From assembly GCA_965218975.1 (NCBI GenBank), contig OZ244717.1, positions 1,632,001 to 1,696,000 of the forward strand: DNA of 64,000 bases, given 5' to 3'. The position numbers and the translations under genes are program-made. The notes beneath the pieces are model-generated. The model saw only the letters and a list, made by a program, of their open reading frames with translations, had not been told where the DNA came from and did no database searches. Shown here piece by piece: positions 1 through 46,489 of the stretch. Position 1 is the stretch's first letter. The number at the start of each line of letters is the position of its first letter. This stretch comes from Candidatus Oxydemutatoraceae bacterium (lineage in GTDB: Bacteria > Pseudomonadota > Gammaproteobacteria > Poriferisulfidales > Oxydemutatoraceae).

Positions 1-478
1 GTCGGGTCGTTCGCCGCTGAAAACCGATTGGTTTTCCGGGCGCGTCTCACCCTGCTCGTCCATGACGAGACCTGGTTCTGTCAATGAGCACCAGCCCCGA
101 CGTCCTTGTCGGGTCGTTCGCCGCTGAAAACCGATTGGTTTTCCGGGCGCGTCTCACCCTGCTCATCCATGACGAGACTTGGTTCTGTCAATGAGCGCCA
201 GCCCCGACGTCCTTGTCGGGTCGTTTGCCGCTGAAAACCGATCGGTTTTCCAGGCGCGTCTCACCCTGCTCGTCCATGACGAGACTTGGTTCTGTTAATG
301 AACCCAGCCCCGACGTCCTTGTCGGGTCGTTCGCCACTGAAAACCAATCGGTTTTCCGGGCGCGTCTCACCCTGCTCGTCCATGACGAGACTTGGTTCTG
401 TCAATGAGCACCAGCCCCGACGTCCTTGTCGGGTCGTTCGCCGCTGAAAACCGATCGGTTTTCCGAGCGCGTCTCACC
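1..478. repeat. Tandem array of a ~107-bp palindromic unit (about 4.5 copies, runs off the left edge)
   Basis: GTCGGGTCGTT recurs at 1, 108, 215, 321 and 428. Each unit holds the hairpins CTCGTC-cat-GACGAG, CCCGAC-gtcctt-GTCGGG and GAAAACCG-at-CGGTTTTC. The same unit occurs at 45420-46374. Confidence 0.95.
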
Positions 479-586
479 CTGCACCGTTCTCATGCCGGTA
501 ACAGACAGAAAGCACCGATCCGAATGTTACTGCCGAATGCTTCCCCCGAAGCCCTTCAAAAATCCCATTTAGAGTGGCATCGTACA
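479..586 (+). mobile_element. Right end of an IS481-derived non-autonomous element (transposase C-terminal remnant plus terminal repeat ending ...GCATCGTACA)
   Basis: Translates LHRSHAGNRQKAPIRMLLPN, resembling the YNxxRPH tail of IS481/rve transposases. Near-identical to 46375-46482 and ends in ACA. Confidence 0.75.
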
Positions 587-632: not shown

Positions 633-708
633 TCCCCGGTAGCTCAGTCGGTAGAGCGGGTGACTGTTAATCACTAGGTCGGCGGTTCGAGCCCGTCCCG
701 GGGAGCCA
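633..708 (+). tRNA. tRNA-Asn (GTT)
   Basis: 76-nt cloverleaf with acceptor TCCCCGG/CCGGGGA, D arm AGCTCAGTCGGTAGAGC, anticodon loop CTGTTAA, T loop GGTTCGAGCCC and encoded CCA. Confidence 0.97.
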
Positions 709-7893: not shown

Positions 7894-8326
7894 ATTGTAG
7901 ATTGCGGGCAGGTTCAGTTCAGGTACAATTGCTGCACTAAATAGGATAATCTTCGGACTATTGTAGATTGCGGGCAGGTTCAGTTCAGGTACAATCCTGA
8001 ATATGCTATATCTGATGACTATTCCATTGTAGATTGCGGGCAGGTTCAGTTCAGGTACAATAAAAAATATCAGATAGAAACAGGACCAGGAATTGTAGAT
8101 TGCGGGCAGGTTCAGTTCAGGTACAATTCGACTTCAGGTGAAACTTTACTAACCTATATTGTAGATTGCGGGCAGGTTCAGTTCAGGTACAATTGGTGGC
8201 TAATTCGCGTTGGCTCGTCAGTGCATTGTAGATTGCGGGCAGGTTCAGTTCAGGTACAATTGTGAAATACATAGACACTTGGGTGTGTCAATTGTAGATT
8301 GCGGGCAGGCTCAGTTCAGGTACAAT
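7894..8326 (+). CRISPR. Type II-C CRISPR array: 7 repeats (36 bp) and 6 spacers (30-31 bp)
   Basis: Repeats start at 7894, 7960, 8026, 8092, 8158, 8225 and 8291; the last has one T>C change. The repeat ends in a -10-like TACAAT. Orientation inferred from tracrRNA pairing. Confidence 0.98.
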
Positions 8327-8364
8327 CAATACTTGCCTAAGCAATTGATATAAAGCGCTTTAAT

Positions 8365-44959: not shown

Positions 44960-45093
44960 ATATGATTTCTCCCATAAAGTTAAGAAGAATGTAAGCATGC
45001 ATGAAAAATCACCGGGAAAAACAACTATCGGACGAATGGAGCGGATTTAAGGTCAAGCGGTTAGAAAACCGCTCAGAGCACGAAATAATCTAT

Positions 45094-46482
45094 TGTACAG
45101 CGCCAGATACATGTGGGATTCACGGCACGACTCAAAAAGGTAACCGATATGCAATATCAGCACATCGGCCACCGCATCAAAGGTTTCTATATGAGCCAAT
45201 TTTGCTTCAAAAATAGAGGCTATAATGAACACAACGGCTCAACAGAAATATGATGCCCTATTATTTTGGGAGGGTTGTAACTCCCGAACGCATTCAAGAT
45301 CGGTCGCAGTACTTTGTACCGCTGCCGTCGGCGTTATCGCCGCACTGGCCTCAGCGCCTTACATGATCGCGGCAAAGCGCCGCGTAAGAGGCGCCAGGGG
45401 ATTGTCAGCAAAGTACTTGTCGTCCATAACGAGACTTGGTTCTGTCAATGAGCGCCAGCCCCGACGTCCTTGTCGAGTCGTTCGCCGCTGAAAACCGATC
45501 GGTTTTCCGGGCGCATCTCACCCTGCGCCAGGCTTATCCGAATCTCGGCAGCAGTAAAATCTTTGAGCTGATGAAATCGTTTTGTGTTTGTTGCCGGATT
45601 GTCGGCAAAGTGCCTGTCGTCCATGACGAGACTTGGTTCTGCGAATGAACGCCAGCCCCGACATCCTTGCCGGGTCGTTCGCCACTGAAAACCGATCGGT
45701 TTTCCGGGCGCGTCTCACCCTGCTCGTCCATGACGAGACTTGGTTCTGCGAATGAACGTCAGCCCCGACGTCCTTGTCGGGTCGTTCGCCACTGAAAACC
45801 GATCGGTTTTCCGGGCGCGTCTCACCTTGACGGACGGCGGTAGTGAGTTTCAAGAACAGTTTGCCCGGCTCATCCGGGAATCACCCGCGATTGAGCAGTG
45901 ACTGACCTATCCCAAGTGTCCGAAAATGAACGCGCACATTGAGCGTTTCAACCGCACCGTCCAGGAGGATTGTATCAATCATGCGGAAAACCTGCTACTT
46001 ACCGATACGGAAGCATTCAATGATCGGTTATGAAACCGTTTTGTATTTGTTGGTGAATGCTCAGCAAAGTGCCTGTCATCCATGACGAGACTTGGTTCTG
46101 CGAATAAACGCCAGCCCCGACGTCCTTGTCGGGTCGTTCGCCGCTGAAAACCGATCGGTTTTCCGGGCGCGTCTCACCCTGCGCCAGGCTTATCCGAATC
46201 TCGGCAGCAGTAAAATCTTTGAGCTGATAAAACCGTTTTGTGTTTGTTGGTGAATGCTCAGCAAAGTGCCTGTCGTCCATGACGAGACTTGGTTCTGTCA
46301 ATGAACGCCAGCCCCGACGTCCTTGTCGGGTCGTTCGCCACTGAAAACCATCGGTTTTCCGAGCGCGTCTCACCCTGCACCGCCCTCATGCCGACAACGG
46401 ACAGAAAGCACCGATCCGAATGTTACTGCCGAACGCTTCCCCCGAAGCCCTTCAAGAATCCCATTTAGGGTGGCATCGTACA
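45094..46482 (+). mobile_element. IS481-derived non-autonomous element carrying five copies of the 107-bp repeat
   Basis: Imperfect TGTAC...GTACA termini and a TCTAT duplication on both sides. Transposase fragments: RSTLYR, LRQAYPNLG, LTDGGSEF, PKMNAHIERFNRT and HRPH. Confidence 0.88.
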
Positions 46483-46489
46483 TCTATTT

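Follow-up and report, generated by a model that had tools for sequence, protein, structure and literature searches.

One-sided junctions at the 3' end of a hairpin repeat in decayed IS481-family elements of a Candidatus Oxydemutatoraceae genome

The DNA considered here, which we call the window, is a stretch of 64,000 nucleotides from a Candidatus Oxydemutatoraceae bacterium (assembly GCA_965218975.1, contig OZ244717.1, positions 1,632,001 to 1,696,000 of the forward strand), and our subject within it is a decayed insertion sequence (IS) of the IS481 family at positions 45094-46482, together with the hairpin-rich repeat, hereafter the unit, whose 3' end is joined there, and throughout the genome, to one partner sequence after another. 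The element has TGTAC/GTACA ends and sits inside a 5-bp TCTAT duplication (left border TCTAT|TGTACAGCGCC at 45089-45099, right border CATCGTACA|TCTAT at 46474-46487); it measures 1389 bp, among IS copies that range from 378 to 2012 bp genome-wide, and its G+C content is 0.52-0.59 in surroundings of ~0.38-0.45. Public contigs from three runs of one study carry both flanks with 0 differences and enter each end of the IS by 29-32 nt. The insertion is therefore present in those runs, whose sample may be the source of the assembly; all of these contigs break inside the IS.

An earlier note on this DNA had described an IS481 transposase chopped into ordered fragments by a repeat that always ends at CTCACC before CTG or TTG. 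The order of parts it gave is right, namely a helix-turn-helix (HTH) segment, a unit, LRQAYPNLG, two units, LTDGGSEF..ERFNRT, a unit, LRQAYPNLG again, a unit and an HRPH tail, and so are the CTCACC ends, which close all five unit copies of Table 1 and recur at position 478. The word ‘chopped’ is fair in that the fragments are indeed separated by units, but it understates the damage, since pieces have also been deleted, duplicated and placed out of order, LRQAYPNLG following ERFNRT. CTG stands after CTCACC at five of the six places and TTG only at 45827, and this TTG is a rare form, seen at 1/27 of the junctions to the TDGGSEF segment, where CTG is usual. The left-end segment L aligns with the N-terminal region of intact IS481 proteins and meets the first unit at a CGGAT-type microhomology (junction class L|X73, n=15 in the genome). 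Directly after a conserved Cys, at the end of the codons that we call S1, the window copy leaves the alignment with intact IS481 proteins and enters the lead-in X and the unit, and ~130 codons upstream of the DDE-core fragment S2 are missing, including the first two catalytic Asp residues; this middle part is present in the copies L006 and L019. S2 itself matches positions 190-258 of the NF033577 model (genome 1677818-1678027), and its junction with ATGAAACCG belongs to a class of 18 in the genome, the tandem junction CTCACC|CTGCTCGTCC occurring 30+4 times genome-wide. A direct repeat of 289 nt (45405-45693 and 46061-46349) has 92% identity. In unit-free copies, the native context upstream of the right-end segment R is TGGTATAAG|CTGCACCG. 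A 33-nt motif from the 3' part of the unit occurs 9 times in the window and in 0 of 100 shuffles. The other copy in the window, which crosses its start, has seven units altogether when followed in full (genome 1631361-1632586), and a tRNA-Asn (GTT) lies at window 633-708, 46 nt downstream of its right end.

Table 1. Parts of the IS481-family copy at window 45094-46482, its target-site duplications and the second copy in the window
Feature	Window positions	Strand	Remarks
Left target-site duplication TCTAT	45089..45093	.	perfect 5 bp
IS left end, L	45094..45393	+	inverted repeat TGTACAGCGCC, leader, N-terminal HTH part of the transposase, frameshifted; 92 blastn matches in the genome
Unit copy 1	45394..45522	+	short 5' extension GGATTGTCAGCAAAG; CTCACC end at 45522
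S1+X	45523..45612	+	native transposase codons LRQAYPNLGSSKIFELMKSFC, then non-native unit lead-in GTTTGTTGCCGGATTGTCGGCAAAGTGC
Unit copy 2	45613..45719	+	107-nt reference; three hairpins including the 18-bp perfect palindrome GAAAACCGATCGGTTTTC; CTCACC end at 45719
Unit copy 3	45720..45826	+	tandem with copy 2, junction CTCACC|CTGCTCGTCC, period 107; CTCACC end at 45826
S2	45827..46031	+	DDE-core fragment LTDGGSEF...PKMNAHIERFNRT...FNDRL, in-frame TGA stop
X lead-in and unit copy 4	46032..46178	+	lead-in starts ATGAAACCGTTTTG, S1-context copy; CTCACC end at 46178
Second S1+X	46179..46268	+	LRQAYPNLG again, out of gene order
Unit copy 5	46269..46374	+	1-nt deletion in the palindrome; CTCACC end at 46374
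IS right end, R	46375..46482	+	LHRPH C-terminal codons and inverted repeat ending GGGTGGCATCGTACA; 97 blastn matches
Right target-site duplication TCTAT	46483..46487	.	
Second element copy, 3' part	1..586	+	tandem 107-nt units crossing the window start, then the R tail

What makes these mosaics worth a closer look is the regularity of their junctions. Locating unit 3' ends by a fuzzy search for the last 22 nt and clustering the 16 nt that come next, we found 306 such ends genome-wide, 272 of which read CTCACC, and the three letters that follow are CTG in 165 cases, CAT in 92 (the 99-nt tandem junction) and TTG in 5. The 39 raw clusters reduce to ~23 partner sites, 12 of the 23 beginning with CTG or TTG and nearly all with C. 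The partners comprise the 99-nt tandem junction (CATGACGAG, n=88), the R tail (CTGCACCG, n=50), S1 (CTGCGCC, n=39), the 107-nt tandem junction (CTGCTCGTCC, n=34), S2 (CTGACGGACGG, n=30), the middle of the transposase (CTGCCCGAGTGT, n=17) and the lead-in (CGTTTTGTG, n=12), to which are added five further points inside R (n=1-10 each), two further points inside the unit (n=2-3 each), three places in a second IS481 subfamily that is described below, another IS-like context (CTGCACCGGG, n=2) and three places in unique DNA. The 5' side is quite different, homology starting at about ten positions scattered over 150 nt. Tabulating the 3' flanks of all copies, as had been proposed at the outset, thus extends the fixed-end rule to the whole genome, where the junctions are far from random, and the variable 5' starts are equally real, scattered over discrete positions. 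Units that appear to be truncated at their 3' end are in fact units split by a small nested hairpin; among those inspected, a single one is truly 3'-truncated, with a secondary deletion at a 7-nt CGCCGCT match.

The sequence on either side of these junctions is informative, since it can be compared with the native context in copies where no unit is present. At the main site the unit is followed by CTGCCCGAG, so that its foot reads CAC-CCTGC-C (unit side CACC|CTGCCCG). The corresponding native contexts are ACGC|CTGCGCC before S1, in copies without a unit there, ATATC|CTGACGG before S2, TATAA(G/C/T)|CTGCACC before R, ACTC|CTGCCGAC at the left end of the second subfamily, GCC|CTGC(A/G)GCTG in the DDE core of that subfamily, and GTCC|CTGCGCGAG in unique DNA. 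The run shared with the flank of the unit is 4-6 nt long at the CTG sites and 2-3 nt long at partners that have no CTG, and the 5' junctions have matches of their own (ATG between S2 and the lead-in, TGAAA and CGGAT between the left end and the lead-in, and CCGCAACC elsewhere). The unit itself is flanked by microhomology, GTGC-CCTG-TCGTCC on its 5' side and CAC-CCTG-CCCG on its 3' side. Microhomology of variable length on both sides points to joining by a polymerase or by repair, unlike the action of a recombinase with a fixed target.

Polarity is the property that we find most striking. The element has five CCTG(C) sites: one upstream of S1, one on the 5' and one on the 3' side of the unit, one upstream of S2 and one upstream of R. 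Each left context was paired with each right context, and the genome was searched for all of the resulting junctions. The native pairs are present in 4, 157, 16, 4 and 3 copies, respectively. Of the 20 possible non-native pairs, 16 are absent from the genome, and the four that do occur (34, 34, 26 and 56 copies) all have the unit end as their left partner, an outcome with a chance of ~1 in 4845 if four events fell at random among 20 types. Because all four of the junctions with the unit end on the left are found, and none of the 16 others, the 3' end of the unit is a one-sided donor, and it is this that is genuinely unusual here.

In addition, the partners are local. Outside the IS loci there are 3518 CCTGC/GCAGG sites, and the loci that hold a unit are all IS481-type elements, their remnants or their immediate flanks, the partners inferred inside the IS lying within about 1 kb. 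At L020 (genome 1034770-1035700), for example, the partner of the unit end is a CCTGC in ordinary AT-rich DNA, 228 nt upstream, giving a repeat with a 302-nt period in three tandem copies, each made of 228 nt of ordinary DNA and a partial unit; as the repeat contains ordinary DNA, it is a tandem duplication and not an insertion. No bias of orientation relative to replication was seen (78 versus 59 loci, not significant, with an origin placed by GC skew that is uncertain in so rearranged a genome). As a separate observation, at genome 405150-405560 an N-terminus like that of a type I restriction R subunit (...FADVDANDWLAVNRYV), with an internal stop, is cut off by the lead-in and unit, which on their other side are joined to a second-subfamily left end at CCTGC, as if an adjacent deletion had run into a host gene.

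Whether the unit is ancestral can be addressed with the copy L019 (genome 210298-211471), whose main site is free of it. The sequence there, NLGSNKVFELMKPFCHRHQLLCPSVRTIARL / NLGSNKVFELMKPFCHRHQLLCPSVRTIARLTADAPDKMR, can be aligned with intact homologues such as P0013 (NLGKEKCFALLLPFCQSEHLPCPSVSTIGRI / NLGKEKCFALLLPFCQSEHLPCPSVSTIGRIIASQPNK) and needs no gap. Since this copy follows intact IS481 transposases across the main site, the unit is, on the alignment, no part of the ancestral transposase gene, and the earlier caveat that it might belong to the parental IS falls away. In copies with a unit at this site ~135 nt, consisting of a G/T-rich lead-in with GGATTGTC-type repeats and the unit, stand in place of 18 nt of coding sequence, as would be expected if a foreign, hairpin-rich segment of about that length had been placed in the transposase gene just past the conserved Pro-Phe-Cys codons. 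The longer copies of the unit, including those inside the second subfamily, have 5' extensions made of the native MKPFC codons and even of part of S1. These extensions consist of native IS codons, from which it follows that all copies of the unit descend from the main site in the IS and that the unit has no 5' terminus of its own.

The unit has 321-328 blastn matches in the genome, nearly always in the orientation of the IS and often in tandem with periods of 107 or 99 nt. Its hairpins are CTCGTC-CAT-GACGAG, CCCGAC...GTCGGG and the perfect palindrome, in which the central pair is G-C in 158, A-T in 62 and intermediate in 15 of 239 distinct units, so that the palindrome has been retained through a compensatory change from G-C to A-T. 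In DNA folds of the reference unit, the palindrome forms the tip of the last hairpin domain, above an inner stem CGCC/GGCG and an outer stem GGGT/ACCC, and the domain closes in the junction zone, at ACCC(T)G. As DNA, the bottom strand outdoes 199 of 200 shuffles in folding (z=-3.4). RNAalifold gave no sensible consensus structure for the 239 units, and Rfam had no family at gathering threshold for the unit, the only match being at chance level (narK, E=5.6). A search of 40 genomes from the same family and order did not find the unit, and a 29-mer taken from it had 0 exact matches in genome and metagenome contig collections. We also looked at a tRNA-like closing stem, GAGAC/GTCTC with an ACC tail, and rejected it: it has no covariation (C-T at one pair in 69 of 239 units) and ARAGORN returns only the tRNA-Asn. 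A separate hairpin of ~24 nt, CCTG[TC]CTGTG...CAGACAGG, occurs only inside units, in the loops of their hairpins (genome 405428, 405487, 416816, 476844 and 712705), and seems to be a repeat nested inside the repeat.

The genome is a single contig of 2.081 Mb with 47.7% G+C and is 99.4% complete. A parse of blastn matches gives 137 loci with pieces of the element, 32 of them with both ends, and the window feature belongs to a set of about 90-137 decayed IS481-family copies, none with an enzyme of its own. A search of the genome with NF033577 found no intact IS481 transposase gene; its 118 fragments are all under the cut-off (best 90 bits, against 224), and P0001, a fragment of 183 residues from the better-kept copy L006, has matches to NF033577 (E=5e-21) and rve (E=3.4e-5) that, with the gene so broken up, do not reach the whole-protein cut-offs. 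In a library of 1.8 billion proteins, a profile-free search did find intact IS481 transposases, 320-360 residues long, the nearest at ~51% identity, so that no parent could be aligned at the DNA level. The IS481 family of this genome is dead, then, and no close intact parent is available. Its membership of IS481 is clear from a transposase recognised by the rve and IS481 models, the terminal inverted repeats and the target duplication; what it has lost is the intact reading frame and hence autonomy. The 32 complete copies have 30 architectures, with 0-12 units each and frequent repeats of whole modules, such as S1-lead-in-unit (197 nt) and S2-lead-in-unit (352 nt), and only 4 of the 32 retain a perfect 5-bp duplication (TCTAT, CCCTT, ACTTA and GCGCC are those seen, with no CTGC preference). 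The reshuffled modules, including the S1 that follows S2 in the window copy, and the few duplications kept suggest frequent exchange between copies.

A second IS481 subfamily, also dead, is present at L021 (genome 1204300-1205900) and at genome 588880-590170, with the ends TGCATAAGCTCAG and GGACTTATACA. It holds unit arrays that come from the first subfamily, including part of the S1 codons of the latter, joined at CTCACC|CGCCGCTACGTG, with the first catalytic region removed. Copies of the two subfamilies often abut or nest.

How might such a pattern have arisen? The explanation that we favour, with a confidence that goes only a little past even, is local, polar, microhomology-mediated duplication and deletion from the 3' foot of the unit, followed by unequal exchange between units. 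The foot would be the CAC-C-CTGC zone at the base of the last hairpin domain, acting as a one-sided recombination hot spot: a strand newly made through the unit may snap back, or may pause or be nicked at the foot, and the released 3' end would then pair with the nearest CCTG(C), so that the strand ending at the foot becomes joined to a neighbouring sequence with which it has 2-6 nt in common, mostly CCTG or CCTGC. With a partner upstream, the product would be a tandem duplication (periods of 99, 107, about 150, 197, 302 or 352 nt); with a partner downstream, the transposase sequence in between would be lost, after which unequal exchange among units could shuffle and multiply the modules. The catalogue of junctions with its microhomologies and polarity, the closeness of the partners, the secondary presence of the unit in the gene and the failure to find candidate enzymes are observations; replication slippage, template switching or break repair as the process, and the foot of the hairpin as what fixes the end, are our inference. 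The whole is probably a curious case of repeat instability and not a new mobile element, and the arrays are most likely functionless.

Several facts sit awkwardly with this explanation. Nothing in the sequence accounts for an end confined to about 4-6 nt, ordinary slippage and microhomology-mediated duplication are not known to be as one-sided as this, and the idea of a hairpin foot was fitted post hoc on one copy; moreover, the top strand of the unit folds no better than its shuffles do (z=-1.3 as DNA, z=-0.6 as RNA). Some sites look like one-step patches, with both flanks native and 8-34 nt replaced (before S1, S2 and R in IS-A, and in IS-B at genome 1543000-1543252), and each patch would need two events or an exchange between copies. 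L019 has been patched at two sites and is empty at the main one. The presence of the unit in the second subfamily, which cannot be aligned with the first as DNA, calls for physical adjacency or for a switch of template from one copy to another. About half of the partner types start with CTG(C), which could equally be the target preference of an enzyme, and the copy counts are inflated by inheritance, the independent events numbering ~23 and not hundreds.

Some of these points would sit more easily with a one-ended copying process. The earlier note had proposed one-ended insertion of the HUH or reverse transcriptase type, and in its fuller form the proposal is that the 3' end of the unit is the origin or terminus of a rolling-circle (HUH) or reverse transcriptase process, which copies leftward for a variable distance and pastes the product at (C)CTGC-like targets with small deletions there, the unit being a parasite of IS481 whose enzyme has been lost or is not recognised. 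A fixed 3' end with varying 5' starts, sometimes carrying extra upstream IS sequence in the manner of transduction, fits this well, as do a perfect palindrome 15 nt inside the unit end (a subterminal geometry familiar from IS200/IS605 ends and relaxase nic sites), the 12 of ~23 partner types that begin with CTG or TTG, the patch-like insertions of 8-34 nt at four IS-A sites and in IS-B, and the two sites filled in L019 beside an empty main site. The polarity on which the proposal was built is real, indeed stronger than had been supposed, with ~23 partners for one 3' end. It is the agent that fails to appear. Reverse transcriptase (PF00078, RVT_1) gave 0 matches and 0 candidates in the genome with a control positive in 3 of 14 genomes, the Y1 HUH transposase (PF01797, Y1_Tnp) gave 0 matches in the genome with a control positive in 6 of 14, and the TnpB domain, with a positive control, had no match in the genome either, so that the search recommended earlier for such genes beside the unit comes up empty on the scale of a nearly complete single-contig genome; for PF04986 (Y2_Tnp) and NF033538 (IS91) the count in the genome was also 0, but their controls were silent everywhere. 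The unit has no constant 5' terminus, it has not moved away from IS481-type DNA and its flanks despite the thousands of CCTGC/GCAGG sites on offer, half of its partner types have no CTG and share 2-6 nt as microhomologies do, unlike a fixed target, the 302-nt repeat of L020 is a tandem duplication that takes in ordinary DNA, and there is no replication orientation bias. As copying by a lost enzyme would nevertheless account for the patches, L019, the second subfamily and CTG(C) in fewer steps, we keep it as an unlikely reading that is still worth stating. Somewhat more doubtful again, in our estimation, is the idea that the 3' foot is a dedicated site of initiation or cleavage, the unit being a hyperparasite that copies itself from one end into CCTGC-like sites of IS481 DNA nearby and so ruins the transposase genes, with an enzyme that is lost or belongs to an unrecognised family. 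A natural, strictly polar fragile site encoded in the sequence would be just as new.

An improbable relative of our favoured explanation, from which it differs only in the cause of the polarity, is that a nuclease nicks or cuts at the 3' end of the unit and that local microhomology repair follows. Three candidates can be named: a Type IIS enzyme recognising the GTCTC that precedes the junction zone by 1-5 nt, a structure-specific nuclease that attacks the hairpin foot, and the IS481 transposase, for which the unit end would be a pseudo-end. All left breakpoints fall inside GTCTCA-CCCT, which is the 4-nt stagger of a GTCTC(1/5) cut, and the start of the 99-nt unit would be the outward cut of the inverted GAGAC. 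GTCTC/GAGAC is, however, not avoided in the genome (1921 observed versus 2029 expected, a ratio of 0.95, rank 120 of 512), GAGAC is replaced by GCGAC in ~40% of the 99-nt units, and the chance that some known Type IIS site would fit post hoc is estimated at about 0.2, so we dropped this candidate as one whose geometry fits but whose site is neither depleted nor, on the 5' side, conserved. For the transposase, the unit end and the right inverted repeat of the IS agree at 11 of 20 positions when read by eye, and the association with IS481-type DNA would follow if it were the nuclease; against this, IS481/IS3-type ends finish ...CA-3' and the unit ends ...CACC, the target duplications of the IS show no CTGC preference and the intact transposase is gone, and with a likeness this weak the pseudo-end was dropped as well. 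There is, finally, the thought that the units are scaffolds and the flanks guides or decoys in a functional RNA array, giving small RNAs against IS481 transcripts or DNA. The hairpins are conserved, with one compensatory pair, and the orientation relative to the IS is constant, but the ‘spacers’ are just two IS fragments or none, no Rfam family matches at gathering threshold, the sense-strand RNA fold is no better than shuffles, the unit is not found in the 40 related genomes or the two public collections, and the RVT_1, Y1_Tnp and TnpB searches gave no effector gene, which leaves the scaffold-plus-guide reading, already the weaker one when it was first raised, very improbable indeed.

If local, polar rearrangement from the hairpin foot is the right explanation, these elements are a natural record of about two dozen independent rearrangements from one hairpin foot of a few bases, a test case for DNA secondary structure giving direction to microhomology-mediated duplication and deletion, and a view of IS decay in a host-associated bacterium. 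A hyperparasite would be, instead, the first known case of a repeat that preys on one IS family in particular. For those who annotate genomes there is also a warning, which is that mosaics of the type ‘IS fragment plus repeat’ can form in place with no second mobile element. Two observations on the surrounding DNA may be recorded alongside. At window 7894-8329 there is a CRISPR-like array of seven 36-nt repeats (ATTGTAGATTGCGGGCAGGTTCAGTTCAGGTACAAT) with a period of 66 nt and differing spacers of ~30 nt. Outside the IS loci, the 5-mers with the strongest under-representation are GATCC and CCAGG (observed/expected 0.72 and 0.73), which may reflect restriction-modification or very-short-patch repair.

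In the literature, supplements excepted, we found no description of an IS481 element with such an internal repeat. Compared with intact members of its own family, the element has the same order of parts (HTH, LRxxxPNLG, CPSxxTIxR, DDE core, ERFNRT, YNxxRPH), and differs in that its gene has been interrupted and rearranged by a repeat that the intact homologues do not have. It is like a miniature inverted-repeat transposable element (MITE) in having IS ends, a duplication, no working transposase and many copies, but its size is above the few hundred bp usual for MITEs. IS91/ISCR and IS200/IS605 elements have one fixed end at a short target, another that varies and a subterminal hairpin; the unit differs from them in having no spread to ordinary targets, in lacking CTG at half of its junction types and in making tandem duplications that include flanking DNA. 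Nor does it have the single fixed target and defined termini of an HUH transposon, its 5' boundary differing from site to site. With 5'-truncated retroelements it shares a fixed 3' end, variable 5' ends and microhomology, a resemblance on which the idea of one-ended insertion was based, but a reverse transcriptase gene is missing. It is no CRISPR-like or guide array either, since the same one or two IS fragments, or no spacers at all, lie between units and there is no TnpB. A parallel to the fixed end itself is terB of Escherichia coli, reportedly a deletion hot spot at an arrested replication fork, where one endpoint is fixed and the other falls at short homologies nearby; we know of no fork barrier protein or Ter-like site for the present system, in which the fixed end lies downstream of the hairpins in the direction of synthesis and is not explained by a simple barrier.

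Two further comparisons bear on the repeats as such. Microhomology-mediated tandem duplication, as described in bioRxiv 10.64898/2026.02.28.708716, involves short GC-rich arms and tandem expansion, with arms that are symmetrical. The unit resembles this, being flanked by CCTG on both sides, as S1-X-unit is by CCTGC, with copy numbers that vary between loci; the difference is that the CCTGC arm at the unit 3' end takes part in all four of the pairs observed out of 20, and in many junctions of 2-3 nt besides. The Wolbachia repeats VNTR-105 and VNTR-141, as presented in PMC3287509, have hairpin periods of about 100-140 nt, variable copy number and low divergence, for which the authors propose palindrome-triggered slipped-strand mispairing and concerted evolution. 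Whereas those repeats occupy one or two intergenic loci, the present one is found in about a hundred IS copies, where it has deleted or duplicated neighbouring DNA that is not part of the repeat, in rearrangements that are polar from the 3' foot of the unit. What is added here is the junction rule, its basis in microhomology and its polarity.

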